NCBI GenBank assembly: GCA_964602665.1
Contig: CAZRRH010000002.1
Span: 62,171 to 126,170 of the forward strand
Source: an uncultured Candidatus Saccharibacteria bacterium
GTDB taxonomy: Bacteria; Patescibacteriota; Dojkabacteria; SC72; WJKH01
Direction of reading: 5' to 3'
Length of the DNA stretch: 64,000 bases
Part shown: in pieces, positions 11,058 through 52,049 of the stretch
How positions within the stretch are numbered: position 1 is the stretch's first letter
How the letters are laid out: every line of letters begins with the position of its first letter
The notes under the pieces: model-generated
Told to the model about the DNA's origin: nothing
Databases searched by the model: none
Seen by the model: the letters and a program-made list of their open reading frames with translations, nothing else
Position numbers and translations under genes: made by a program

Positions 11058-13487
11058 ATGCCAGAACAAATAAATATAATGGATTACTTCTCGCAAAGAG
11101 CAAGTAATTCGCTACAAAAATCAGCAGAAATCGCAGTAAATGCCGGAAGTAATAAAATCGATACTGAGCATTTGCTTGCAGGAGTTCTTTCTGAAGATGA
11201 GGTCGTTAAAAGAGTCATAAAAGAGCTCAAGCTTGATATAGAACTTTTACAAAAGCAGCTGTCTGAATATATTGGTGAGGACGAGGATAGGGAAATCTCG
11301 TATGAACAAACACCGACGCTATCTCCTAGAGTAAAACAAGTTTTGCAACAATCTTTTATGGAATCTCGCAACTTAGGTCATAACTATATTGGAGGTGAAC
11401 ATATACTTTTGGGACTAATATCTGAAGGAGAAGGATTGGCTTCACAACTTTTTGTTAAATATGGTGTTGATTATAATCAAGCACGGCAAGCTGTTGTTAA
11501 AGTCGTCGGAGAGGGTGATGAAAAGGGTGAGAAAATAACCGAAAAATCAGAAACGCCAAATTTAGACAAATACTCTCGTGACCTAACACAATTGGCGTAT
11601 GATGGCAAAATTGATCCGATAATAGGTAGAGCTGATGAGATAACTCGGGTTATACAAATACTATCGCGTCGTAAGAAAAACAATCCTGTGTTAATTGGAG
11701 AACCTGGAGTTGGTAAAACAGCTATTGCAGAAGGGTTGGCTTATAGGATATCAAAAAATAATGTCCCAGATATCCTAAGAGATAAAAGAGTAAAAGAGCT
11801 TGATGTCGCGTTATTAGTCGCAGGTGCTAAATTTAGAGGTGAATTTGAAGAACGCGCAAAGAAGGTTATAAAAGAGCTACAGTCCACAGGTGGACAGATA
11901 ATTCTTTTTATAGATGAGTTACACACAATTGTTGGATCGGGTGCATCAGAAGGACAAATGGATCTTTCTAATATGTTAAAACCTGCTCTTGCTCGTGGAG
12001 AGCTCAAAGTAATTGGCGCAACAACTTTAAACGAATACAAGAAATATATAGAGAAAGATTCTGCTTTGGAGCGACGATTTCAGCCTGTACTTGTTAATGA
12101 GCCAACAGTTGATCAGACAATAGATATTCTCAAAGGACTTCGGGATAAATATGAAGCTCATCATAAGGTAAAAATAACTGACGAGGCAATTGTTAGTGCC
12201 TCAATTATGTCTGATAGATACATAAAAGATAGATTTCTTCCAGATAAGGCAATTGATTTGATAGATGAGTCTGCAAGCAAGGTTCGTATTGAGTCTTCAC
12301 TTGTTCCCGATGAGATCGCAACTTTACAAGACGAGATTGAGAAGCTTGAGAAAGAGAGAGAAGCTTACAGCAGGGCGGGTGAGCATGAGAAAGGCGCTCA
12401 ATTAAAAGTGCAAATCGAGAAATTAAAAAGTCAATTACAACCGCTTAACGACCAGTGGAGCAAGAAAAAAGGGACGGGTACTCCAACAGTAACAGCAGAT
12501 TCAATTGCGGATTTAATATCATTACAAACAGGGATACCAGTTAGCCAGCTAAAATCAGAGGATAAAGAGAGACTTTTGCACTTAGAGGAAGAATTACATA
12601 AAAAAGTTGTTGGTCAGGATGAAGCAGTTAAGGCCGTGTCTGAGGCTGTACGCAGAGCAAGAGTTGGCCTTAAAGATCCTAATAGACCAATAGGCTCATT
12701 TTTGTTTATGGGGCCAACAGGAGTAGGCAAAACATTGTTAGCTAAAACGCTTGCTTGGCAAATATTTGGTGATGAAGAAGCAATGATTAGGCTTGACATG
12801 AGCGAATATATGGAGAAATTTGCAGTAAGCAGAATGGTTGGGTCTCCTCCTGGTTATGTTGGATACGAGGAAGGAGGTCAGCTTACAGAAGCAGTACGAA
12901 GACAACCATATAGTGTTATTTTGCTAGATGAGATAGAGAAAGCTCACAGTGATGTTTTTAATATTTTGCTTCAAATTTTGGACGACGGGCGTCTTACTGA
13001 TGCTAAGGGGAGAACTGTTGATTTTAGAAATACAATTATAATCGCAACTAGTAATATAGGTTCTGATTTGATTATGGACTCCCTAAAAGGAGGCAAAGAT
13101 CCTGATTGGGATAGGCTCAAAGAAAAGATGATTGACAGATTAAAAAGTCATTTCCGACCAGAATTTTTGAATAGACTTGACGATGTTGTTATCTTTAGAA
13201 AGTTAGAAAAAGCTCAGATAAGAGAAGTCGCTAAAATTTTAATTGATGAAGTGGTTAGAATGCTTAAGGCACAAGGTTTTGAGCTAATTGTTACAGATGC
13301 TGTTCTTGATCATTTGGCTGATATTGGATACGATCCTGAATTTGGTGCAAGGCCAATGAGAAGAGTAATACAAGAGAGTATTGAAAATAAATTAGCTGAT
13401 GGATTGCTTAAGGGAGATTTTAAGACGGGACAGAAGATTACTGTGGATTTTAAAGAGGGGAAGGTTCTTTTAAATTCTAAATTTTAA
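11058..13487 (+). CDS. clpC: ATP-dependent Clp protease ATP-binding subunit ClpC (Clp_N plus two AAA+ modules)
   Basis: The Clp_N repeat is [19 protein letters not shown]. Walker A motifs are [15 protein letters not shown] and [15 protein letters not shown]. Sensor/arginine-finger regions are present. At 809 aa the middle domain is ClpC-length. The last codons and stop are supplied by a repeat element. Confidence 0.85.
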
Positions 13488-13544
13488 ATTCTAGATTTTG
13501 AATTCTAGATTTTGAATTCTAGATTTTGAATTCTAGATTTTGAA
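13475..13544. repeat. tandem 14-bp A/T-rich repeat: one degenerate copy plus four perfect copies of TTCTAGATTTTGAA
   Basis: Units lie at 13489-13502, 13503-13516, 13517-13530 and 13531-13544. A degenerate copy, TTCTAAATTTTAAA, at 13475-13488 overlaps the clpC stop codon at 13485-13487. Confidence 0.85.
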
Positions 13545-13596
13545 TTAGTAGAATGGTTTGGTTGCATTTATGCTTTAAATAAGATAAAATAATGAC

Positions 13597-15015
13597 ATGC
13601 AGAAAATAACAAAACAGAGCGAGAATTTTGCTAAGTGGTACCAAGATGTTGTGGCTTTTGCAGATCTTGCAGAGAGTTCTGAGGTCAGGGGCTGTGGTAT
13701 TATTAAACCTTATGGGCTCAAAATATGGGAATTGATAAAACAGAATCTTGCTAATAGAATTGAGGCTACTGGCGCACAAAATGTTTATTTCCCAATATTT
13801 ATACCTCTTGCTAATCTAGAGACAGAAAAAGAGCATGTAGAAGGATTTGCTCCTGAACTTGCTGTTGTAACACATGGAGGAGGGCAGGAGCTTACGGAGA
13901 AATTGACTGTCAGGCCAACAAGTGAAACAGGAATGTATAAAGCTTATGCTAAGTGGATTTCTAGCTATCGTGATCTTCCTTTAAGGCTAAATCAGTGGAA
14001 TAATGTTGTTAGGTGGGAGAAAAGGCCAAGGGCCTTTCTTAGATGGAGTGAATTTTTATGGCAGGAGGGACATACTGTTTTTGAGACGAAAGAAGAAGCG
14101 ATTGATGAAATGTGGCAAATGCTTGGAATATATGAGCAAGTTTACAAAGATTTGGCAATTCCTGTATTTAAAGGTAAAAAATCAGAGAAAGAAAAATTCG
14201 CAGGGGCTGATATAACAACTACAGTCGAGGTAATGGCTAAAGACGGGAAAGCAATACAAGGTGCAACAAGTCATCATCTCGGGCAGAATTTCTCAAAAGT
14301 TTTTGACATCAAATTTGCCGGAAAAGATGGTAAAGAGCATTTTCCATATCAAAACAGTTGGGGATTTACATGGAGGTCTGTTGGAGCTGTGATAATGGCT
14401 CATGGCGACGATTTTGGTCTAAAGTTACCCCCTAATGTCGCACCAATTCAGGTTGTCATAGTCCCTGTTATCAATAATGAAAAAATCGCTGTTTTGGATT
14501 CTGCTAAAAAGCTTGTAAAAGAATTAACAGATCTTGGATTAAGAGTAAAATTAGATGATCGAGAAGATCAAACAATTGGATACAAGTTTAATGAATGGGA
14601 GTTAAAAGGAGTTCCATTACGCATTACAATTGGTTCAAATGAGCTTAAAAATGGCGAATTTGAGCTATTTAGACGCGACAAGATGAGTAAAGAGTTTGCA
14701 AAAGCTGATTCTATTGGAGATTACATTGTAAAAAAGCTCATTAAGATTCAAGAAGATATGTATAAGGAAGCCAAGGAATTTGCCGATTCTCATGTTTATA
14801 CTATTAACAACTTAGAAGAAATAGATGAAAGAAAAGGATTCTTCCGTGCTAGCTGGTGTGAAAGTAAGGACTCTGAAAATTTACTCAAGGAGAAATATAA
14901 AATGGTGTCTCGAGTATTGCCTGTTGAGTGGGAAAAGCTACCTCCAACAAATAAAAAATGTTTTATCACTGGCCAAGAAGCAAAACACGACTGGCTTTTT
15001 GCAAAAAGTTACTAA
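13597..15015 (+). CDS. proS: prolyl-tRNA synthetase, archaeal/eukaryotic type (class II)
   Basis: The N-terminus WYQDVVAFADLAESSEVRGCGIIKPYGLKIWE is typical of archaeal-type ProRS. Class II motifs are present. The C-terminal Zn-binding domain ends in the conserved terminal Tyr (..FAKSY). Confidence 0.85.
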   Translation: MQKITKQSENFAKWYQDVVAFADLAESSEVRGCGIIKPYGLKIWELIKQNLANRIEATGAQNVYFPIFIPLANLETEKEHVEGFAPELAVVTHGGGQELTEKLTVRPTSETGMYKAYAKWISSYRDLPLRLNQWNNVVRWEKRPRAFLRWSEFLWQEGHTVFETKEEAIDEMWQMLGIYEQVYKDLAIPVFKGKKSEKEKFAGADITTTVEVMAKDGKAIQGATSHHLGQNFSKVFDIKFAGKDGKEHFPYQNSWGFTWRSVGAVIMAHGDDFGLKLPPNVAPIQVVIVPVINNEKIAVLDSAKKLVKELTDLGLRVKLDDREDQTIGYKFNEWELKGVPLRITIGSNELKNGEFELFRRDKMSKEFAKADSIGDYIVKKLIKIQEDMYKEAKEFADSHVYTINNLEEIDERKGFFRASWCESKDSENLLKEKYKMVSRVLPVEWEKLPPTNKKCFITGQEAKHDWLFAKSY

Positions 15016-33825: not shown

Positions 33826-35070
33826 TTAATTATTAATTCCCGGTATTTCAAATTTGCTCATATAGGAGGCTACTTTAGCTCTTAATTTGCTCAAATAAGA
33901 CTCATCTTTTCTATTTTTTAGTGCTTTGTCAATTGAGTCAGCGACAAACTCCATGTCTTTCTCAACTAAACCTCTTGTGGTTATTGCTGGAGTACCTATT
34001 CGGACGCCTGATGGATCCCAAGGCTTGCGAGGATCGTTTGGTATACCGTTTTTATTTAGTGTAATATTTGCAAGCTCCAAAGTATCGCTAGCGATTTTGC
34101 CTGTGAGACCATTTTGTGTTGTCACATCGACAAGCATAAGGTGGTTATCTGTTCCGCCTGATATAATTCGATAGCCCTTGTCCATAAGTAACTTTGATAA
34201 ATAAGCTGCATTAGCAATAATCTGCTTAGCATATGCTTTGAAATCATCCTGGCTTGCTTCTTCTAACGCAACGGCAATTCCTGCAGTAGTGTGATTATGT
34301 GGTCCACCTTGCAATCCTGGGAATACAGCTCCGTCAATCTTCTCGGCAAACTCTTTTTTGCACATAATCATCGCGCCTCTTGGTCCTCTTAGCGTCTTAT
34401 GTGTAGTAGTAGTAACGACATCAGCGTATGGGAATGGATTTGGATGGACTCCTCCTGCGATTAATCCTGCTATGTGAGCTATATCTGCAACGAGAATTGC
34501 TCCGACTTCATCGGCTATCTCTTTAAATTTCGCAAAATCTATTATGCGTGGATAAGCTGACCCTCCTGCCCATATAAGTTTAGGCTGGTGCTTTTTTGCG
34601 ATATCTCTAACTTCATCGTAATCTATATAGCCGTTTTTGTCTACACCGTAAGATGCAGAATTAAAATATTTACCAGTAATGCTAACTTTAAAACCGTGTG
34701 TGAGATGGCCACCAGCAGATAATGCCATCCCAAGTGTGCGATCGCCGGCGTCAAGAAATGCAAAATGCACAGCGAGATTTGCGGGAGAACCTGAATATGG
34801 TTGGACATTAGCATGCTCTGCATTAAATAACTTGCAAGCACGCTCTTTTGCAAGATCTTCTATCTCGTCGATAAACTCATTGCCTGCATAATATCTTTTA
34901 CTTGAGTATCCTTCTGAGTATTTGTTTGTTAAAATAGAACCCATTGCCTCAAGTACTGCTGATGAGACATAGTTTTCGGAAGCGATTAACTCGATTCCTT
35001 CTTTTTGGCGTTTAGCCTCGCTTTTTATAGCGTTGTAGACCTTTTGGTCTTGGTTTTGTAAAGTGGACAT
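33826..35070 (-). CDS. glyA: serine hydroxymethyltransferase
   Basis: Motifs NKYSEGYSSKRYYAGNEFID, HLTHG and the PLP-Lys region VVTTTTHKTLRGPRG. Confidence 0.9.
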   Translation of the reverse strand: MSTLQNQDQKVYNAIKSEAKRQKEGIELIASENYVSSAVLEAMGSILTNKYSEGYSSKRYYAGNEFIDEIEDLAKERACKLFNAEHANVQPYSGSPANLAVHFAFLDAGDRTLGMALSAGGHLTHGFKVSITGKYFNSASYGVDKNGYIDYDEVRDIAKKHQPKLIWAGGSAYPRIIDFAKFKEIADEVGAILVADIAHIAGLIAGGVHPNPFPYADVVTTTTHKTLRGPRGAMIMCKKEFAEKIDGAVFPGLQGGPHNHTTAGIAVALEEASQDDFKAYAKQIIANAAYLSKLLMDKGYRIISGGTDNHLMLVDVTTQNGLTGKIASDTLELANITLNKNGIPNDPRKPWDPSGVRIGTPAITTRGLVEKDMEFVADSIDKALKNRKDESYLSKLRAKVASYMSKFEIPGINN

Positions 35071-35140
35071 AAATATAAATTTTAAATTTTAAATTTTAAA
35101 TGCTAAATTTTAGATTTTAAATTTTAGATTTCAGATTTTA
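35071..35140. repeat. A/T-rich tandem repeat array (AAATTTTAAA / TTTAGATTTTAAA units) between the four-helix-bundle gene stop and the glyA start
   Basis: It contains TAAATTTTAGATTTTAAATTTTAGATTTCAGATTTTAAA. This belongs to the same motif family as the 13475-13544 array. Confidence 0.7.
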
Positions 35141-35142
35141 AA

Positions 35143-35502
35143 TTAAATAAGTGGTTTTTTCTTTGAACAGCTGATAACAATTTTTGTTAGTATTTTAATT
35201 ATTTCTTCAATATCTATAAGTAAATTAGAGCATTCTGCATCAACTAAGTTACTTTCTTTAAGCAAATTTAGCCAGTATCTTGTCTCTCTTGCTTCTTTTG
35301 ATGCGATTGACATCTTATGTGTAAAGTCCTTTTTACTTTGTCCTGCAAGAGCCTCTTCAATATTTGCGCCAATGCTCGTACCGCTTCTAAGTAATTGCTT
35401 AGATAGAATATATTCTTTTTCTGCTATTAAAATTTTATAAAATTTAATTATGTTTAAGCTAAAAACAAACGCCTTCTTTTGAATTATATTTTCTGTTTTC
35501 AA
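35143..35502 (-). CDS. four-helix-bundle protein of the '23S rRNA intervening-sequence protein' family
   Basis: The family pattern is KEYILSKQLLRSGTSIGANIEEALAGQSKKDFTHKMSIASKEARETRYWLNLL. It uses a TTG start. Confidence 0.6.
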   Translation of the reverse strand: MKTENIIQKKAFVFSLNIIKFYKILIAEKEYILSKQLLRSGTSIGANIEEALAGQSKKDFTHKMSIASKEARETRYWLNLLKESNLVDAECSNLLIDIEEIIKILTKIVISCSKKKPLI

Positions 35503-35589
35503 TACAAATTTTAAACTCTAAATTTAGAAGTTTCATTTTATTTTACCTCTCTAATGATTAAAAAATCCTGAATTATAAATGATAATACT

Positions 35590-35680
35590 CAATTCAAAAT
35601 TCAAAATTTAGAATTTAAAATTACAAATTGTAAATCCTTTGCCTTTAATTCAAAATTTAAACTTTAGAATTTAAAATTGT
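35590..35680. repeat. A/T-rich repeat array (TTCAAAATT / TTTAGAATTTAAAATT units) overlapping the 3' end of the ABC ATPase gene
   Basis: The sequence is ATTCAAAATTCAAAATTTAGAATTTAAAATT...TTCAAAATTTAAACTTTAGAATTTAAAATTG. This is the reverse-complement orientation of the 13489 unit. The last six codons and the stop of the 35657..36463 gene lie inside it. Confidence 0.7.
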
Positions 35681-36463
35681 TCTGTATTTCTTCACCACCT
35701 CTTTTGGTGTACCATCTATTGCAACTTGTCCTTCATTGATAAGAATTGCTCTAGTGCAGAATTTCTCGACTAGCTCTAAATCATGAGATACAAAAATTAC
35801 CGTTTTATCTTTTTTGCGGAAACTCTCAAATTCATTAAAACACTTCTTCTGAAAATTGGCGTCACCAACTGCTAATACCTCGTCCATTATGTAAATATCG
35901 GCGTATGAGCGGATAGCGATTGAGAAAGCGAGTCTGACCTGCATACCTGAGGAGAAATTTTTAAGCGGCATATCAAGGAACTCTTCAAGCTCCGAGAATG
36001 CGACGATACTGTTAAATTTATCCTCAACCTCTTTGCGCGACATGCCAAGTATTACACCATTTAGATAGATATTGTCACGAGCTGTTAATTCTGGGTTAAA
36101 GCCAACACCAAGCTCCAGAAAAGGCACCAAAATACCTCTTACTTTGATTTTACCTTGGTTTGGCAAGTAAATTCCTGACATTATCTTAAGAAGGGTCGAT
36201 TTGCCTGATCCGTTATTTCCAAGTATTCCAACAAATTCGCCTTTTTCGACCTTAAAAGAGACATTTTTTAAAACTTCGAGTTTTCTTTTGCCATCGTTGC
36301 TAATCCATTTGTGCGGTTTTGCGAGTCTTTGGATTAGGGTGTCTGTTTTCTCTGTTGGTATGTTAAAGTGTTTACTTACATCTGACACGATAAGTGAGTA
36401 ATCATGTTCTTGTACGATTTTTTTTTGCTTGGTTTTTGCCATATTTTTAAAAAAATTCTGCAA
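35657..36463 (-). CDS. polysaccharide/teichoic-acid ABC exporter ATP-binding protein (Wzt/TagH-like)
   Basis: Walker A GILGNNGSGKSTLLK, signature FSSGMQVRLAFSIA and Walker B IYIMDEVLAVGD. It is paired with an ABC-2 permease. Confidence 0.75.
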   Translation of the reverse strand: MQNFFKNMAKTKQKKIVQEHDYSLIVSDVSKHFNIPTEKTDTLIQRLAKPHKWISNDGKRKLEVLKNVSFKVEKGEFVGILGNNGSGKSTLLKIMSGIYLPNQGKIKVRGILVPFLELGVGFNPELTARDNIYLNGVILGMSRKEVEDKFNSIVAFSELEEFLDMPLKNFSSGMQVRLAFSIAIRSYADIYIMDEVLAVGDANFQKKCFNEFESFRKKDKTVIFVSHDLELVEKFCTRAILINEGQVAIDGTPKEVVKKYRTILNSKV

Positions 36464-37214
36464 TCCTCTTAACTGTGGGTTTAAAATAGTTATATCCCAT
36501 AGATGTAAATAAAAATATTATTGAGAAAAGGAGGAATATCGTTGCGAAATCGTTTATGCTTACTTTATCGGCCTCTAAAAGCCCAGTGCGGAAAGCTTGG
36601 AGGATATGTGTTAGTGGATTAAGTTTAATAATCCTAGCGAGATTGTCTGGAAGCTGATCAACGCTATAAAGAATCGGAGTACCCCAAAACACCATTTGTA
36701 AGCCAAGCTCTACTAGATGATGCAGGTCTTTCATAAGAATATTGCCAAGACTTGTGAAGAAAGAGATAGACAAAATAAGCAGGTATAGTGTAAGTAGAGA
36801 GAATATAACTAATAATAGACCCCAAAAAGAGAGCTTTATTCCTGCTGCTATAGCAAATACTAGAAGTATGCCAAGATTAACAAGAAAATTAATAAGTGCA
36901 ACGGCCGTCGAACTGAATATAACAACCTCTCTTGGGAAGTTGATTTTTAGTATTATGTGAGACTTGTTTTCTAGGCACTTAAGACCAAGAGTTATGCCAT
37001 CATTGAAGTAGTTTGATATCATGATACCAGAAAGTAGGAAGAGGCTATTTTGATCTCGTGTGCGAAATATAGATGTCCAAATAAAATATAGTATAGAGAA
37101 TAATGCTAGGGGTTTAATTACCATCCATAAGAAGCCAAGCGCGGAGTTTTTATATCTATGTTTGAAGTCTGTTTTGACAAATTCATTTAGTAGATCGATA
37201 TAGTTTTTAAACAT
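36447..37214 (-). CDS. ABC-2 type polysaccharide exporter permease (Wzm/TagG-like)
   Basis: 255 aa with six TM helices and ABC-2 family architecture. Upstream of and overlapping the ATPase gene. Confidence 0.7.
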   Translation of the reverse strand: MFKNYIDLLNEFVKTDFKHRYKNSALGFLWMVIKPLALFSILYFIWTSIFRTRDQNSLFLLSGIMISNYFNDGITLGLKCLENKSHIILKINFPREVVIFSSTAVALINFLVNLGILLVFAIAAGIKLSFWGLLLVIFSLLTLYLLILSISFFTSLGNILMKDLHHLVELGLQMVFWGTPILYSVDQLPDNLARIIKLNPLTHILQAFRTGLLEADKVSINDFATIFLLFSIIFLFTSMGYNYFKPTVKRIAEFF

Positions 37215-45389: not shown

Positions 45390-47654
45390 ATGAAAAGATC
45401 TCTTTATATTATATATACGGTTTTTTTTATAATATTTTTTATCTTGCCATTGTTTTATCTTTTTTGGAAAAATAAGGGCTCTTCTATTCTTGGGCTTGAT
45501 TTGATAAATTATTATAATCCTGAAAAGAATCTCAAAGAAATTTTTTATATGTGGATTGAGAACGGCGGGAATGGATTTGGGTTTTATTTACCTATAAGAA
45601 TATTTGAAATTTTGAATGTCTCGATAAGCGTTTTTTTAAAGAAGTTGGGGGTTTCATTTAATGCTTGGTATAAAATATATTATTTTTTATCATTGATAAT
45701 TGGATATATTGGAATTTTTAAGCTTCTTAGTATGTTTTATAGAACAAAGATCATGTCTATTAAATTATTACTCGTTTCATATATATATATATTAAATCCA
45801 TTTACTTTAATAATAATTTATAACCCCGTTCCTTACTTTATAAATTTTATGGCTTTAACTCCATGGATTGCCTTTTTTTATATTCGAATTATTCGTGATC
45901 CTAACAGTAAAAGCTTATTATTGTTTTTAGCACTTAGTATTTTCTTAAATGTGGCATTTGCAAATTTAGCCTTCTTGGCTACATTAGTAATTCTCTTATT
46001 GATAATTAGCGTATTAGAAATAAAGAATATTTATAAAAATAGGAAAATACTTACTATTTATTTAATTATAATTTTTCTATTCAACTCATATTGGACTTTG
46101 AACTTAGGTCATTTTTATATTTTTAATAGAACAGACTTATTTGAAAGTGAGATAAACATTATTAAAACGGTCTTTGATATTGAGTCGATAAGTAAGTATG
46201 CTAAACTATCTAATATTTATCGTGGAATCGGAGGTTGGGATTTTTTTAATTCTCCTTTTGGTAAGCCATCGATAAGCTTCTCCTCGTTTTATAAGCAAGT
46301 TGTGCCAAGTATTTTGTTGTTTTTAAATCTGGTGCCTTTTCTAATGATTATTATTGACAAGAAGCATCAAGGTAGAAAAAGCATAATCATGGGTTCGTAC
46401 TTGCTAATAATATTTATGATATCTTATGGATTAGATAGTCTATGGTTTAAATCTGGAATTGTTAAGTCTGGTTTATATATGTTTAGAGATACTTTTAGTA
46501 AATTTGGAATGCTAATTCCATTTTTAATGACTATTTCTTGGTGTGAAACGATTAAGAGTAGCGGAAAAACAGCAATTTTTTTTCTTAGCCTTGCCATGCT
46601 TATAAATTCATATCCTCATTTAACAGGACAATTTATTAATAACGACTATTACTCTAATTATCCAAATGAATATAAGATTATTGGCAAAATAATCGATGAA
46701 GATTTTTCGTCAAATAGAGCTCTAAAGGTTCCAATCCCGACTTTTATTGCCATAGGAGAGAAAAATGATACATTGGCATGGGATTATTGGGGACCAGCTT
46801 TTTTATATGAGTTCACTGAAAAAAGGACGATAGAGATTCCTTCAAGAGCTGTTAATCGTTACTCAGATAAATACATGGAGAATTTCGTTGAAAATATAAA
46901 TGAAGAATATTTTTGTGAAAACTTAGATGAGATAAACATAAAACATATTCTTTTCAATAATAATTATTATGACTATTTATCTCCGAATGATAATGAAAAG
47001 ATTAAAGATAAATATTTTAAGATAGTAAATTCTTGTCAAAAGCTGGAACTTGTTTATGAAAGTAATGGTTATTACCTTTTCATAAACAAGGATGATTTAA
47101 GAGCAATTATTGATGGGAAAAACTTGTCTTTCCATAAAAATAATCCTACAAAATATAGTTTAAAAGTAGATAAAATAAAAGATAAGTTAAAGATAAACTT
47201 TTATGATTCATTTGATTATAATTGGCAATTGTATTTAAAAAGTAATAAAGAGTTTGCATCTGAAATGTTTTTAAATGCAGAAAAAAAACATATTGGCAAT
47301 TCAATAGAATATATTTCTAAAGATAAATTTGCTTTTAAGCTTACTGATCTCTCATACCTTTGGCGTAAGCCAATATTTGAAGATACGCATGAACTAGTAT
47401 ATGACTATGCAAACGGGTGGACAATAGATCCTGAGTACATAAAAGCAAACTATCCACCAGAATATTACCACGAGAACCCAGATGGCTCAATAGACATACA
47501 GTTGACCCTGTACTTTAAACCCCAGTCATACTTTTATCTTGGCATAATAATCTCCGTCACGACATTTACAGGATGTATAATATACCTAATAATAGACACA
47601 ATTAAAACTAAACGGCGCAAAAAAGATACAAATGAACCTCAAAACAAAAAGTAA
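45390..47654 (+). CDS. YfhO-like GT-C fold membrane glycosyltransferase (N-terminal polytopic domain, C-terminal extracytoplasmic domain, terminal TM)
   Basis: 754 aa with about 12 N-terminal TM helices, a roughly 300-aa soluble C-terminal domain and a final TM helix. It has the same architecture and C-terminal motif (GWxIDP...LTLYFxPQ) as its neighbour at 47632. Confidence 0.45.
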   Translation: MKRSLYIIYTVFFIIFFILPLFYLFWKNKGSSILGLDLINYYNPEKNLKEIFYMWIENGGNGFGFYLPIRIFEILNVSISVFLKKLGVSFNAWYKIYYFLSLIIGYIGIFKLLSMFYRTKIMSIKLLLVSYIYILNPFTLIIIYNPVPYFINFMALTPWIAFFYIRIIRDPNSKSLLLFLALSIFLNVAFANLAFLATLVILLLIISVLEIKNIYKNRKILTIYLIIIFLFNSYWTLNLGHFYIFNRTDLFESEINIIKTVFDIESISKYAKLSNIYRGIGGWDFFNSPFGKPSISFSSFYKQVVPSILLFLNLVPFLMIIIDKKHQGRKSIIMGSYLLIIFMISYGLDSLWFKSGIVKSGLYMFRDTFSKFGMLIPFLMTISWCETIKSSGKTAIFFLSLAMLINSYPHLTGQFINNDYYSNYPNEYKIIGKIIDEDFSSNRALKVPIPTFIAIGEKNDTLAWDYWGPAFLYEFTEKRTIEIPSRAVNRYSDKYMENFVENINEEYFCENLDEINIKHILFNNNYYDYLSPNDNEKIKDKYFKIVNSCQKLELVYESNGYYLFINKDDLRAIIDGKNLSFHKNNPTKYSLKVDKIKDKLKINFYDSFDYNWQLYLKSNKEFASEMFLNAEKKHIGNSIEYISKDKFAFKLTDLSYLWRKPIFEDTHELVYDYANGWTIDPEYIKANYPPEYYHENPDGSIDIQLTLYFKPQSYFYLGIIISVTTFTGCIIYLIIDTIKTKRRKKDTNEPQNKK

Positions 47655-49902
47655 AAAAACATATACCACAATAATTCTTATCCTACTAATCATCCTCTCC
47701 ATCCTCAACCTTCTCCCACTTAACCACATATATTCTCAATATGACATCGCACAGCAAATTGTTCCACGCCAGATCTTAGAGCAAATATACCTGTGGTCAC
47801 AAAGAGATCTAGGTGCAATGGCAACATCTTACTCCTCACTCCAATACTATCTTCCTCTCACAATCATCCCTACCACGCTCCACACAGCATACTATTACCT
47901 CATATTCCTCATCCCAACATACCTTGGCATAACATACTACCTATCCCAAAATAAAACGCAAAAATTAAAAAACAAAACTTACCTGCTCTCTCTAGTCTAT
48001 ACCATCTCCTTCTTCCCAGTATACTCATTCTTCTATCAGGGAGGACATTTCCCATTTCATAACCTATACTCACTATTTCCACCAATATTCATCCTATACT
48101 ACTTATACATAAGCAAAACAGAAAAAGAGGAGGCAAAAAGCTATCAATTTAAAATTCAAAACTTAAAATTTAAAATTGATAATAATTTATTAATCCTCCT
48201 TGCCATTCTTTTTCTAACTAACATAGTCAACTCCAATATCCCGTATTTTTTCTCGCTTAACCTAGTTTTAATACTAATTGCAGTAGTTAATTACATCATC
48301 CTAAAATCACGCAAAGCGGTTCGTACAATACCTTACTTGTTCAAAATAGCTAAATTTTACATACTATATTTCTTAATTACCGTTTGGAGCACAGTGCCAC
48401 AAATAATACAGCATTTAAACACATATTCATCGTTTATGAGACAGCAAGAGCACTTTCCCATAGACCAATGGCTGTTTTGGCAGTCAATGAATTTCACAGA
48501 GAGCTTGACGATGTTTTGGGAGACTCGCAGATACCTGGATCAGATACCTCTAACTGTATATGGCGCACTGGCCATTACATTTCTAGCCTTTGTCGTTTTA
48601 ATCGCAACAAAAAAGAGAACAGCGATACTTACGATACTTTGGGCAACATATATATTTGTCATATTTTTAGCCAATAAAGGGGCATACTGGCTTCCGCAGC
48701 GTTGGACACTTGCCATTTTCAAGCTTCCATTTTTGGCACCAATAAGATCATATGATAAGACGCTAATTTTTATGCCATTTCTTTTGTTTGCGATAATATC
48801 TTACTATATCCTGACTGATTACGAGAAAAACAAGAGATTAAAGCAAGTCATGCTTGCAGTACTATGCATCTCACAGATAATCGCCTCATATCCACTATGG
48901 AGTGGCCAGTTAGTCACAAAGTACTCACAACAGCATGCTAAAGGTGAGGATTACACAACTGCAGAGTATTCGCCCGTTGTACAAATCCCACAAGATTATT
49001 ATGATGTAGCACAAATATTAAATGCCAAGTATGATAATGGTAGAAATCAATTCCGTGTTATGCGCTTGCCATATTCTGTAGTAAACTCGGCGGGTTGGGC
49101 TAACTACCCTAAGTGGAAAGTCAACAGCGCTGATCCTACAATACAGCTATTTGATATGCCTTCCGTTCAGCCACAGTCCTTTCCTGATGAAGCTTTTGGT
49201 TTGTGGAATTGGGGATTGGAGTGGAATGAGGATGATAAATCGCAGAGCATGTGGCTTCTTAATTTTATGACATTTACTAATAGTCGATATATTATTTATC
49301 ATAAAGATGTTAAGCCGGAGTTTATTGCTGATACGATTGACAAGATAAACTACTACAAAGAGCAGGGGTTGATAACGCAGATTTATAGTGGTGAGTATAT
49401 TGACGCTTATGAATTATCTCGGATTTACATTGGCGATCATTTTTATATCGCTGATAAAATCGAGTATTTTAGTGGCGACTACGATAATTATGCAAGCCGG
49501 CTTTACAATTTGAATGCTAACTCGGTTTTTATACATAGCGATAGAATTACACAAGAACAGTTAGTTTCGCTATATAATATTAAAAAATCAGATGCACAAA
49601 TAAGCTATGAGTATATTAGCCCGATAAAATATAAAATAACCGTAAAAAATGCGACAGAGCCGTTCGTTTTGGTTATGCGAGAGGGTTATCACAAAGGCTG
49701 GAGGCTTACTGGTGCAAGCTGTGATCATATATTTGCAAATGGTTTTGCTAATGGATGGATAATTGATCCTGGTGATAGCGATGAGCTTGACTTAACTCTC
49801 TATTTTATACCGCAAACATTATACTGGGTTACTTTTGCTATATCCTCTTTGACTTTTTTATGGGTTTTATATATGATAATCATGATTAAAAAAAAGAAAT
49901 GA
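47632..49902 (+). CDS. YfhO-like GT-C fold membrane glycosyltransferase, tandem paralog
   Basis: 756 aa with the same topology as 45390..47654. Its 5' third has unusual G-depleted codons, and an in-frame repeat-family copy lies at 48156-48187. Confidence 0.45.
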   Translation: MNLKTKSKKTYTTIILILLIILSILNLLPLNHIYSQYDIAQQIVPRQILEQIYLWSQRDLGAMATSYSSLQYYLPLTIIPTTLHTAYYYLIFLIPTYLGITYYLSQNKTQKLKNKTYLLSLVYTISFFPVYSFFYQGGHFPFHNLYSLFPPIFILYYLYISKTEKEEAKSYQFKIQNLKFKIDNNLLILLAILFLTNIVNSNIPYFFSLNLVLILIAVVNYIILKSRKAVRTIPYLFKIAKFYILYFLITVWSTVPQIIQHLNTYSSFMRQQEHFPIDQWLFWQSMNFTESLTMFWETRRYLDQIPLTVYGALAITFLAFVVLIATKKRTAILTILWATYIFVIFLANKGAYWLPQRWTLAIFKLPFLAPIRSYDKTLIFMPFLLFAIISYYILTDYEKNKRLKQVMLAVLCISQIIASYPLWSGQLVTKYSQQHAKGEDYTTAEYSPVVQIPQDYYDVAQILNAKYDNGRNQFRVMRLPYSVVNSAGWANYPKWKVNSADPTIQLFDMPSVQPQSFPDEAFGLWNWGLEWNEDDKSQSMWLLNFMTFTNSRYIIYHKDVKPEFIADTIDKINYYKEQGLITQIYSGEYIDAYELSRIYIGDHFYIADKIEYFSGDYDNYASRLYNLNANSVFIHSDRITQEQLVSLYNIKKSDAQISYEYISPIKYKITVKNATEPFVLVMREGYHKGWRLTGASCDHIFANGFANGWIIDPGDSDELDLTLYFIPQTLYWVTFAISSLTFLWVLYMIIMIKKKK
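48156..48187. repeat. in-frame copy of the A/T-rich repeat family inside the 47632 CDS (AATTTAAAATTCAAAACTTAAAATTTAAAATTG)
   Basis: It encodes YQFKIQNLKFKIDNNL within the ORF. The motif matches the arrays at 35590-35680. Confidence 0.5.
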
Positions 49903-52049
49903 AAAAAAAGATACTACTAACAGTCCTTGTTACAAGCGCTATATCAGCACTCCTTCTAGCTTTGTCATCGTATATGAGCAAAGACTTGCAGGTCAAGCCA
50001 ATTGATTCGCTCGATCAGCTGTATTTATCTAAGTATATTTCTCAAGGTAGTGCAGGACTAAGTGTGTCGACTACAGATCAAAACGCAGATAAACTTGTCC
50101 CATACACCAAGGAGTCTTATGTATCAGCACAAACCGCACAAAACACTCCTTATTCTAATTATAAATATGAGGGCGCGTATTTACCAAAAGAATCGTATTA
50201 TAAAAGGTTAGATTTCTCAGAGTATTATGGCCTTAAAACGGTTATATCCCTTTGTAAAGACGAGTATTTTTACACATCAGAGGTTGGAGAGGAATTTATT
50301 ACTCACAATCAGTCAAGAGATCATGAATATCTTCTTAACCGCAAATTAAGCGATATTGCAAAATGCAATGTCTCGGTACTTAAGTTTGATGATACAAATC
50401 TACTTCAAAATCTCCAAACCAGTAAAGATTTTCCTGCTGTTTTAAGTGATCACAGACTGGCACTCTCAAGCGAGAGAAGTTACACTATTGATGAGAATGG
50501 GCAAGCAGGTATATTGATAGAAGTTAAGGAAAAACCAGCATATTATGCTCAAAGATATCTTGCTACGATAAAACCATTTGACGATTATCTTCTTGAGTTT
50601 AAGTATCAAGCGCATGACACCCTAAATCTTCGTTATGGAGTTAGATTATTTACACAAAAGTATCTTGATAGACAAACCGCAATGGAGCAAGAAGATTATG
50701 ATCCTATTGCCTGGAGTGATATTGACAATGAGTACACTGAATACTATTTTGACATTGCAAATGAGCAGTCGCATTTATTACAGCAGGTCGTTTCGACAAA
50801 CTTAGAAGATGTCATCGGAGTAGAGGTGATATATTATGCTGATTCGTGTACAAATGCCAGATATTCTTTTGGGATGCCTTCTCTCTACTCTTTGGTTTCA
50901 CAAGATAGTATTGATGAATATAAACAGGAATACTCTTTGTTGGCTGAACTTGTAAAAGTAGATTTACCTGCTAAATTGCCTGTATCCGAATTGGAATCTC
51001 CGTTTTATATTCTCAATAAGTCTGTGCAGTCAGAAGATGGCATATATACTACAGATGTCTACATAGCTAGTAATGACTATGCTCTGTATTTACTTGAGTT
51101 TGATGGCAAAGCATATACTATTACTGGTGAATTTGGCGAAATGGTGGTTGAAGATTATGATTGTGGTAAGGTTGTTATTGGCGATATAGCACTTGGCAAG
51201 ATAATGAATTTATCATTAAAGAGCGATAAGCCGGTTGATAGCATATCTTTGGAAAAGGCTACCTTTTACGATCCTTCATATTCAGAAACGCTTTTCAAAC
51301 TTGATAAAACTCAGTTTACAAGTGGCGATTATAAGTTAGTTCTATTAGAGAAACCTTATTCTCTCAAATATTATATAGCGGATTCTGATTATTATCATTA
51401 TATGACAAATGGTAATCAGAACTTATTTCTAATAAATAGTGATATAACTATATACCCCATAGGGTATAAAACAGCCGAAAGTATTAGAATATTGGCCTTT
51501 TTGATTATACCCATAGGGGTATTTATTATGCTTGTTTATCTTAACCGGTCTAAAATCGTTGGAATCTATAAAAAGATTAATAAATCTTATATCTATATAA
51601 ACACGCTTTTTTCAAGGAAGATTAGTATTCCACTGCTTAAATTCGTTTTTGACTCAAAGGAGATAAAATATAAGCATATTTTTGATACCAAAAGCAAATT
51701 TTGGGGTGAAATTGACATGATAATTGAGAAGATTGTTACTGATGTTATTAACAAGCCACTTGGGCTGATTTTTATCGTTGCAGGATGTATTCCTTTGATA
51801 TTTGCCCTATCTATACCTCTTAAATCTATTGCTATTCTGATCGTTTTCGCAATTATGTTGATTTGGCTTCTTTACGGATGGGATAGTAGGGTTTTGGGTC
51901 TTGTAGCGTTGATTTTTTTGTGTGCAGTGCCTGTTTTGCTGATTCTTAAAAAAGATGGCTATGCTGAAGGTTTTGCCATTATGGTCTACTTTTTCCTTGT
52001 TGCTAATGTCGCCGTGCAGGTTAAAGAAGGCCTAGAGCATAAGCAGTAG
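49899..52049 (+). CDS. large membrane protein (N-terminal anchor, about 500-aa extracytoplasmic domain, C-terminal polytopic domain), unknown function
   Basis: 716 aa with N-terminal TM and signal and about six C-terminal TM helices. Composition resembles the higher-GC patch. Confidence 0.4.
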   Translation: MKKKILLTVLVTSAISALLLALSSYMSKDLQVKPIDSLDQLYLSKYISQGSAGLSVSTTDQNADKLVPYTKESYVSAQTAQNTPYSNYKYEGAYLPKESYYKRLDFSEYYGLKTVISLCKDEYFYTSEVGEEFITHNQSRDHEYLLNRKLSDIAKCNVSVLKFDDTNLLQNLQTSKDFPAVLSDHRLALSSERSYTIDENGQAGILIEVKEKPAYYAQRYLATIKPFDDYLLEFKYQAHDTLNLRYGVRLFTQKYLDRQTAMEQEDYDPIAWSDIDNEYTEYYFDIANEQSHLLQQVVSTNLEDVIGVEVIYYADSCTNARYSFGMPSLYSLVSQDSIDEYKQEYSLLAELVKVDLPAKLPVSELESPFYILNKSVQSEDGIYTTDVYIASNDYALYLLEFDGKAYTITGEFGEMVVEDYDCGKVVIGDIALGKIMNLSLKSDKPVDSISLEKATFYDPSYSETLFKLDKTQFTSGDYKLVLLEKPYSLKYYIADSDYYHYMTNGNQNLFLINSDITIYPIGYKTAESIRILAFLIIPIGVFIMLVYLNRSKIVGIYKKINKSYIYINTLFSRKISIPLLKFVFDSKEIKYKHIFDTKSKFWGEIDMIIEKIVTDVINKPLGLIFIVAGCIPLIFALSIPLKSIAILIVFAIMLIWLLYGWDSRVLGLVALIFLCAVPVLLILKKDGYAEGFAIMVYFFLVANVAVQVKEGLEHKQ

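Follow-up and report, generated by a model that had tools for sequence, protein, structure and literature searches.

To our knowledge, the tandem heptamers of bacteria have been catalogued since 1990 without agreement on their function, the cyanobacterial short tandemly repeated repetitive (STRR) heptamers reportedly being the subject of Mazel et al. in that year. Likewise, we know of no function assigned to the widespread small genes of the PF05635/TIGR02436 family outside diversity-generating retroelements (DGRs), to whose accessory protein Avd we take the encoded four-helix-bundle protein to be related. Both subjects come together in the DNA analyzed here, a 64,000-nt stretch of contig CAZRRH010000002.1 (the window) with a GC content of ∼0.33, from a host belonging to Candidatus Dojkabacteria in the candidate phyla radiation (CPR), the name also borne by those ClpC homologs for which a source is given. 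It holds six arrays of an A/T-rich heptamer, and arrays in opposite orientation flank a PF05635 gene between a Wzt-like ABC ATPase gene and glyA. On balance, the window is best explained by heptamer arrays that change length by slippage, write the tails of the genes they abut and, as inverted arms, bracket a PF05635 cassette, an explanation that we favor as probable rather than hold as secured. The ordinary part of it is the tail-writing heptamer repeat; the interesting part is the recurrent, cross-phylum cassette of inverted heptamer arrays around a four-helix-bundle gene.

The repeat class itself is known from the long simple-sequence repeat (LSSR)/STRR heptamers and from TAACTGA, and for TAACTGA the writing of protein tails has already been described. 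In Beggiatoaceae, Cyanobacteria and Bacteroidetes, the TAACTGA repeats stand a few nucleotides before start codons without a ribosome-binding site (MacGregor 2015, PMC4679880). In forward orientation they present stops in three frames and their overlap with open reading frames (ORFs) is limited to the last 18 nt or less, with 13 ORFs of the genome studied ending inside a repeat; ribosomal protein S1, Csp or CsrA were proposed as binders, and the paper has zero occurrences of PF05635, S23 or four-helix-bundle genes and describes no inverted arm pairs (PMC4679880). Closest to the cassette is the intervening sequence (IVS) of the Coxiella 23S rRNA, in which a PF05635 ORF is held in a 28-bp terminal stem cut by RNase III and three strain-variable tandem heptamers precede the start codon (PMC4990558).

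Read in register, all six window arrays are built from the heptamer T[AG][AG]ATT[TC]. For 13468-13546, Tandem Repeats Finder (TRF) reported periods of both 7 and 14; the stretches 35076-35144, 35591-35634, 35647-35678 and 48146-48177 were reported with period 7. Together with the in-register reading, this places arrays at or next to every position named in an earlier interpretation made from the letters alone (the sequence-only reading). That reading had described a 14-bp unit. The repeats are there, and the unit length must be corrected to 7 nt, the 14-mer being two heptamers in the alternation TAGATTT-TGAATTC. The exact 14-mer TTCTAGATTTTGAA has 4 copies, all within 13489-13544, and the degenerate 14-mer motif has 1 copy (TTTTAGATTTTAAA at 35108); the remaining arrays consist of TAAATTT, TAGATTT and TGAATTT variants. 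The features on which the argument turns are as follows, in window coordinates.

13471-13547, + strand: heptamer array of 11 units, between clpC and proS
13474-13487, + strand: last four codons and stop of ClpC, AAT TCT AAA TTT TAA, giving NSKF and stop, array-written
35076-35145, + strand: heptamer array of 10 units, the downstream cassette arm, antisense to the − strand genes
35143-35502, − strand: PF05635/TIGR02436 gene of 119 aa with a TTG start, the cassette cargo
35505-35525, + strand: heptamer array of 3 units, immediately 5' of the PF05635 TTG start, an inner arm
35590-35617, − strand: heptamer array of 4 units, the inner upstream arm, sense for the − strand genes
35646-35673, − strand: heptamer array of 4 units, the outer upstream arm, overlapping the Wzt-like stop codon
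48145-48179, − strand: heptamer array of 5 imperfect units, in frame in the ORF at 47632-49902

The window repeats are real, lie far above chance and are no effect of composition. Three consecutive units (≤2 mismatches) were matched 26 times versus 0.52 expected, with 3 in the largest shuffle, and all 26 matches are confined to the six array sites; third-order Markov simulations gave 0.74 runs of ≥3 units and a maximum of 4 units, versus the 11 and 10 observed. Even the 14-mer motif of the sequence-only reading (≤2 mismatches) occurs 46 times versus 17.6 expected, so the excess over A/T composition on which that reading depended is borne out within the window. Rfam returned four tRNAs for the window and no other family.

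The cassette is embedded in a string of genes on the − strand that comprises wzm (36447-37214), the Wzt-like ABC ATPase (stop at 35657), the 119-aa gene and glyA (33826-35070). The 119-aa protein matches Pfam PF05635, '23S rRNA-intervening sequence protein' (E = 1.5e-26), and TIGR02436, 'four helix bundle protein' (E = 1.2e-30), has PDB 2RLD as its closest solved structure (E = 2.7e-24) and is the sole PF05635 member in the window; PADLOC gave no defence-system match for it. The gene is co-directional with wzt and glyA, and the arms flanking it are in opposite orientation to each other. On the downstream side, the 35076-35145 array overlaps the PF05635 stop codon (35143-35145) and comes to within 5 nt of the glyA ATG (35068-35070). 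The outer arms are 82% complementary over 45 nt (35079-35123 with 35591-35635) and 74% over 53 nt (35092-35144 with 35626-35678), and an inner pair is 84% complementary over 32 nt (35507-35538 with 35591-35622). In the predicted RNA fold, in the minimum-free-energy (MFE) and the centroid structure alike, the outer arms (35646-35673 with 35076-35145) close around the whole ORF, and the inner arm 35505-35525 pairs with 35590-35617 in the MFE structure. These inverted arms around the PF05635 gene, the part of the locus that comes and goes, had been missed when the 35-kb arrays were first noticed, as had the period of 7 nt and the stop codon in every sense-oriented unit; the writing of tails was correctly seen. 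A 25-codon ORF (MKLLNLEFKICIENRKYNSKEGVCF and stop; 35459-35536, − strand), whose ATG follows GAGAGG, a rare Shine-Dalgarno-like motif here, overlaps the PF05635 TTG start in another frame and could be a leader peptide or the remnant of a frameshifted start.

The layout recurs in other genomes. Metagenome contigs of the Joint Genome Institute (JGI) were scanned with an alignment of three PF05635-family proteins as query, loci being selected by protein similarity only. At least 565 family relatives were confirmed, and the sample analyzed consists of the best 80 loci (48-72% identity, GC 0.28 to 0.63), hence of one part of a diverse family. Up to 200 nt from the ORF, arrays of period 7, 14 or 21 have a density of 5.0 per kb, versus 0.26 per kb at distances above 300 nt. 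Of the 71 loci with sequence on both sides, arrays are present on both in 48 and on at least one in 67. Gaps adjoining the PF05635 gene hold an array in 84% of cases (89/106) versus 24% (24/102) for the other gaps of the same loci (Fisher p = 4e-19). The heptamer varies by locus, yet the arms of one locus are reverse complements, as in the pairs TTACGAA/CGTAATT, AGTTACA/ACTTGTA and TTTGAGT/TCAAAAC. Scored by the best ungapped inverted match, the arms of a locus reach a mean of 16.1, compared with 9.4 for arms crossed between loci, 10.0 for a reversed partner and 7.3 for random segments; a score of ≥14 was found for 46 of 72 loci and for 0 of 70 controls. RNA duplex energy was discarded as a measure of arm pairing: real flanks were better than reversed, shuffled or mismatched ones, but GC-richer coding controls were equally low. 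The arms also have a polarity, upstream arms being G-rich, with all three frames closed in 43/73, and downstream arms C-rich. Neighboring genes are co-directional with the PF05635 gene upstream (55/62) and downstream (44/51), at median gaps of 42 and 29 nt, and in several related gene pairs the nucleotide homology ends ∼50 nt or less from the ORF.

Plasmid-borne genes annotated 'four helix bundle protein' present the same picture: in 6/6, from four phyla, they are flanked by heptamer arrays, and the arms are visibly inverted in most (hosts: Bernardetia, Nostoc punctiforme PCC 73102, Euhalothece, Planktothrix, Treponema saccharophilum and Candidatus Chlorohelix). That the arms and the PF05635 gene together make up a recurrent cassette is, in our judgment, very likely. 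As a separate observation, the array-bracketed genes of the Planktothrix plasmid (L225) and the Chlorohelix plasmid (L223) lie amid defence genes, one locus having a DISARM drmD and an MmeI-type restriction enzyme as neighbors and the other a DUF1156 protein and a Swt1-family HEPN protein.

The same comparisons bear on the plainest alternative, namely that A/T-rich runs drift by polymerase slippage as a functionless by-product and that their proximity to PF05635 genes is incidental. Such neutral drift would agree with the free variation of copy number, with tails that substitute non-conserved residues of similar length and with an in-frame copy placed in a length-variable loop (all described below), and heptamers are the most abundant class of LSSR in prokaryotes by the account of Mrazek (2007) as cited in PMC4679880. 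It does not accommodate the 17-19 fold enrichment at PF05635 genes relative to other gaps of the same loci, nor the locus-specific complementarity of the arms, nor their consistent polarity, with upstream arms G-rich and stop-rich and downstream arms C-rich; moreover, genomes with a GC content as high as 0.68 carry A/T-rich arrays too. A purely neutral origin is thus considered improbable.

The arrays were also followed without regard to the gene. When one genome of each species was searched for four TRRATTY units in succession, at least 120 stretches were obtained, and the figures that follow are from the 120 listed. Their hosts include Cyanobacteria, Bacteroidota, Acidobacteriota, Planctomycetota, Chloroflexota, Verrucomicrobiota and CPR, and among these listed matches are genomes of 0.60-0.68 GC; Nostoc, Microcoleus, Calothrix and others are rich in TAGATTT, TGGATTT and TGAATTT arrays. 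For about one fifth of the listed arrays an inverted partner lies no more than 900 nt away, in some cases making a tight cargo-free hairpin, and the cargo-free inverted pairs of other genomes have loops of 8-13 nt. Where arrays lie within ORFs, 19 are antisense and 1 is sense. In an uncultured member of the Phycisphaerales (L024:4120-4760, GC 0.60), a helicase-like (RecG-like) ORF contains a 569-nt piece with TGAATTC arrays at either end, which are translated in frame as NSEFRIQNSEFR.

Comparison of close genomes reveals that the PF05635 gene is gained, lost and relocated. Strain L135, whose Wzt-like protein is 99% identical, has no PF05635 gene between wzt and glyA; there, the interval from the wzt stop codon to the glyA ATG is taken up by heptamer-like units, ∼80 nt in all, that make a perfect hairpin of 19 bp with a loop of 8 nt. 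Strain L216 has the gene between wzt and glyA, and its array between the PF05635 gene and glyA is longer by 14 nt. The 82-83% relative GCA_015657875.1 (L134) has wzt and glyA adjacent, with an ordinary 84-nt spacer and no array, and its PF05635 gene, 49% identical, lies in the next gap, between glyA and fhs, where it is again bracketed by arrays: (TGATTGA)x10 on the 5' side, overlapping the glyA stop codon, and (GAATT)x7 followed by (TAAATTA)x7 on the 3' side, before the fhs ATG. At L134:5596-5629 the period-5 run, (GAATT)x6.8, overlaps the PF05635 stop codon, and arms are accordingly not always heptamers. In L216 (1643-2439; ERZ22348845) the call of the Wzt-like gene is split into ORFs of 188 aa and 76 aa, owing to a genuine frameshift or, with coverage at 3x, to an error.

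Mechanistically, the arms may be understood as the two halves of a long A-U-rich stem, which would form in RNA, within the transcript, or in DNA, as a hairpin. At the RNA level, RNase III could free the cassette from the message of its host by way of the stem, by analogy with the rRNA intervening sequence; at the DNA level, gain and loss of the cassette could use the hairpin as substrate or as landing site. Solo arrays such as that between clpC and proS would then be the same repeat without cargo, the 14-mer array being self-complementary. A role of the arms at RNA level, or with RNase III, is suggested here only tentatively, from the resemblance to the rRNA system. Several observations weigh against parts of this picture. 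Against a stem at the RNA level, the mismatches between arms show no bias toward pairing in the sense RNA (41 G-U-compatible versus 60 A:C-type, p = 0.07), and the RNA of the whole 631-nt cassette is no more stable than its shuffles (z = −0.5). Against a clean mobile unit, the arms in L134 are different heptamers, TGATTGA and TAAATTA, and between filled and empty alleles the whole spacer differs, so that no clean insertion junction can be defined. Against an obligatory tie of the arrays to the gene, 24% of the unrelated gaps in cassette loci also hold arrays, and a PF05635 gene was detectable at 3/120 of the listed TRRATTY loci (tblastn and two profile-search rounds), each of these three having a second array across the gene. 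Since arrays occur in unrelated gaps and cassettes per array are few, the arrays exist independently of the PF05635 gene. The proposition that every TRRATTY array marks a PF05635 gene was rejected on the same count of 3/120 listed loci, arrays being far commoner than cassettes.

The empty site of L135 speaks for reading the arms as a DNA recombination structure, in which inverted arrays would be extruded as hairpins or cruciforms and some enzyme of the host or of an element would insert or exchange the PF05635 gene at the apex, in the manner of attC sites, REPINs or the intervening sequences at the tips of rRNA helices: its perfect hairpin of 19 bp, with a loop of 8 nt, occupies the position that the gene has in the window. 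A DNA hairpin with the gene at its apex fits this empty site equally well as the RNA stem does. Cargo-free inverted pairs with loops of 8-13 nt in other genomes, the lack of G-U bias in the sense RNA and the end of homology between gene copies near the ORF all point the same way. However, no recombinase, transposase or integrase was identified beside the cassette, the window not having been scanned systematically for one, and we know of no catalytic activity for a four-helix bundle of ∼120 aa. Moreover, the filled and empty alleles use different heptamers, so that insertion into the L135 hairpin itself is only a possibility. Recombination at the DNA level appears unlikely as the complete account, and we retain slippage arrays with inverted arms around a PF05635 cassette as the preferred explanation of the window.

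The effect of the arrays on adjacent genes follows from the composition of the unit. In sense orientation each unit opens with TAA, TAG or TGA and, as 7 is not a multiple of 3, a stop in every unit closes all three frames within three units, whereby any frame that runs into a sense-oriented array terminates within about five codons. From 13471, the three frames read TAA, AAA TTC TAA and AAT TCT AAA TTT TAA, the third being that of ClpC. ClpC ends in GKVLLNSKF, its stop codon (13485-13487) overlapped by the 13471-13547 array, and the Wzt-like ABC ATPase ends in RTILNSKV, its stop codon (35657-35659) lying within the 35646-35673 array, which writes NSKV and stop. The ending GKV[L/F]LNSKF is confined to six near-identical ClpC proteins; an 83% relative has GKVVAGKK and most Dojkabacteria have GKIVFEKK. 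Wzt-like proteins elsewhere end in TILNSKQ (P0121, a 99% strain), KILEET (82% relative) and EMMEK (78% relative). The tails LNSK[F/V/Q] are lineage-specific because sense arrays close every frame, and since the total length of ClpC and of the Wzt-like protein is nearly unchanged across relatives, the array took over a short, non-conserved tail. By the sequence itself, an array exchanges the final few residues of any gene it abuts for residues of its own coding. In the cassette loci of other genomes, the upstream neighbor likewise has its stop codon inside an array in 27/56 cases, with tails such as ILNFKF and LLANFEF. The proposal of the sequence-only reading that two unrelated genes take their final codons and their stop from the repeats therefore stands, and the C-termini of relatives, which end otherwise, speak against an ancestral tail.

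How the arrays change is most clearly seen between clpC (11058-13487) and proS (13597-15015). The array there runs TAAATTC TAAATTT TAAATTC, then four TAGATTT TGAATTC pairs, with TGAATTA in place of the last TGAATTC. Its unit number differs by strain, with 5 in L122 and L123, 11 in the window, 15 in L125 and longer arrays in others, while the flanks are identical in all compared contigs (ClpC identical or near-identical). The alleles differ solely by multiples of 7 or 14 nt, the shortest keeping 5 units, and no repeat-free allele was found among the compared strains. Identical flanks combined with whole-unit length differences indicate slippage rather than transposition. We are highly confident that the feature is a heptamer simple-sequence array and not a miniature inverted-repeat transposable element. 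The array is also where other assemblies of the same species fail, as they break or carry N-gaps exactly at this place (scaffold gaps inside the array in L124, L126, L127 and L128; contigs ending inside it in L001 and L129-131), and in other same-species assemblies most contigs that carry wzt measure ∼1-3 kb. Arrays of this kind are a practical cause of fragmented short-read assemblies of CPR genomes.

These alleles bear on the case for a non-autonomous miniature mobile element, comparable to Rickettsia palindromic elements (RPE) or Correia elements, that would be mobilized in trans and inserted at gene ends and in frame. In its favor, copies are dispersed at several loci in 64 kb, the in-frame copy is lineage-specific and sits in a loop that holds other heptamer arrays in a relative, and the wzt-glyA spacer is wholly different between strains. 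Yet the arrays have no defined length (3, 4, 4, 5, 10 and 11 units) and no termini beyond the repeat unit, no target-site duplication is seen at array edges or between filled and empty alleles, the clpC-proS alleles vary by multiples of 7 or 14 nt only with 5 units in the shortest, and many unrelated heptamers behave alike in other genomes. We regard such an element as very unlikely. The sequence-only reading had left a choice between an active or recently active non-autonomous element and a recombination-prone simple-sequence family. The whole-unit alleles uphold the second; the lack of a fixed unit and of target-site duplications speaks against the first. The RPE/Correia-like behavior it proposed is not found, there being neither fixed length nor distinct termini nor target-site duplication (none visible in the allele comparisons at clpC-proS and wzt-glyA), and the alleles are those of slippage.

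Considered as RNA, the clpC-proS array is predicted to fold on itself (−33.4 kcal/mol, z = −2.86, 1 of 200 shuffles as good) through the UCUAGA and UUUGAA blocks. The RRATTY core is palindromic, exactly so for AAATTT and GAATTC and by G-U pairs for AGAUUU and GGAUUU. An intrinsic-terminator pattern was not found at clpC-proS, and a terminator search near the cassette gave a single match, within glyA on the opposite strand. The array as an intrinsic terminator was rejected, no such pattern being present in or after the arrays.

The one array of the window that lies within an ORF is antisense, an orientation that can stay open. The 48145-48179 array is translated as QFKIQNLKFKI inside a 756-aa ORF (47632-49902), which reads ...SYQFKIQNLKFKIDNNL... 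at the repeat. In an alignment of eight homologs, all those found at E ≤ 1e-10, the segment sits in a length-variable loop between conserved hydrophobic segments; it is present in the 92% homolog and replaced by unrelated, repeat-free sequence in the 74% homolog (L219). The 48145-48179 segment is therefore not ancestral, and the in-frame translation noted earlier is confirmed as one that not all homologs conserve. The 756-aa ORF has no Pfam or NCBIfam match, and the label 'YfhO-like' previously given to it was not confirmed. It is the middle one of three consecutive, slightly overlapping ORFs of 754, 756 and 716 aa (45390-52049, + strand). In a 61% relative (L218; GCA_015657875.1), the same loop contains three other in-frame heptamer arrays at 594-689, of AATTAC-type, CGTAATT and [C/T]ATCAAT, the first two mutually inverted; a cargo-free inverted array pair is thus translated within a membrane protein.

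Position relative to start codons suggests a further alternative, in which the arrays are control regions, serving as unstructured A/U-rich leaders or binding sites before start codons in organisms that make no use of Shine-Dalgarno pairing, with unit number tuning the downstream gene; the four-helix-bundle protein itself would be a further candidate binder. The 35076-35145 array ends 5 nt from the glyA ATG, and plain A/T-rich leaders are the rule in the window, where a Shine-Dalgarno-like motif lies no more than 20 nt from the start codon in 5/53 predicted genes. In the listed loci of other phyla, 17/48 of the start codons facing an array are at ≤10 nt, and TAACTGA repeats are placed likewise (PMC4679880). 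A promoter-like site, TTGAAT-17-TAGAAT, made up of the last unit and its flank at the end of the clpC-proS array (13526-13554, + strand), is directed toward proS; it is a consensus match only, and such matches are expected in A/T-rich repeats. Arrays are found in both orientations and also 3' of stop codons, unit numbers range from 5 to >20 in strains with otherwise identical genes, and inverted, mutually complementary arms are left unexplained. As a general account, control of the downstream gene is accordingly given little credence next to the explanation by slippage arrays, tail-writing and a bracketed PF05635 cassette.

Lastly, the study has importance in bringing two separate puzzles into one frame. 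No paper was found on PF05635 genes outside rRNA that are bracketed by inverted heptamer arrays, the search being incomplete and an earlier description possible; the only literature link found between an S23p/four-helix-bundle gene and heptamer arrays is the Coxiella IVS. It is possible, and is proposed here with due reserve, that heptamer arrays together with PF05635/TIGR02436 genes constitute widespread, unrecognized, operon-embedded and IVS-like mobile cassettes, whose protein may bind, protect or propagate the array hairpins; a range of this class across CPR, Bacteroidota, Cyanobacteriota, Chloroflexota, Spirochaetota and others is put forward just as tentatively. If true, the heptamer/STRR repeats and a large uncharacterized protein family would be linked, and the rRNA IVS would be a special case of a general element. 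The cross-phylum association (arrays in 84% of flanking gaps, locus-specific complementary arms, co-directional neighbors) turns both puzzles into concrete experiments. Independently of function, arrays break short-read assemblies, create strain-specific C-terminal tails and can sit in frame in membrane proteins, and they should be allowed for when genes are annotated or strains compared in CPR, Bacteroidota and cyanobacteria.

Set against described systems, the window arrays differ from the elements best known for mobility. The repetitive extragenic palindromic (REP) sequences of Proteobacteria, with the bacterial interspersed mosaic elements (BIME) and REPINs, resemble them as short, intergenic, hairpin-forming repeats within operons, often in inverted pairs; REPs, however, are single conserved palindromes of ∼20-35 nt mobilized by RAYT transposases and not tandem 7-nt arrays, and no RAYT was seen here, no search having been aimed at one. 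RPE and Correia elements share the position of repeats at gene boundaries and, as the hallmark of RPE, lineage-specific translation in frame (48145-48179), but they are discrete units of 100-150 nt with defined ends, in Correia with TA target duplications, whereas the heptamer is the only unit in the present arrays and their alleles arise by slippage. An integron cassette is a promoterless ORF with an attC hairpin, arrayed beside an integrase gene with attI; the window cassette is single and embedded between housekeeping genes.

Much closer are the LSSR/STRR heptamers, which are likewise arranged head-to-tail, mostly intergenic, scattered in the genome and changed in copy number by slippage. 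The window arrays share with them the 7-nt head-to-tail runs, the whole-unit alleles and the ORF-internal copies in the stop-free orientation. In published work, LSSR/STRR heptamers are tied neither to inverted arms in pairs nor to any one gene family, and a literature search found no account of them in CPR bacteria. The TAACTGA repeats present the same situations as ClpC, Wzt and glyA do here, with a different unit (T[AG][AG]ATT[TC] in the window), and their leader placement is found at one of the two downstream genes, glyA (5 nt) as opposed to proS (∼50 nt). The nearest relative of the cassette as a whole is the 23S rRNA IVS of Leptospira and Coxiella. That element sits in helix 9, 25 or 45 of the 23S rRNA, whereas the window cassette sits between the protein genes wzt and glyA and its arms are themselves heptamer arrays; processing by RNase III is carried over to the window by analogy only. 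In both, a PF05635/S23p ORF is the cargo, complementary termini enclose it in an inverted-repeat stem, heptamers precede its start codon and the distribution is sporadic and apparently horizontal.

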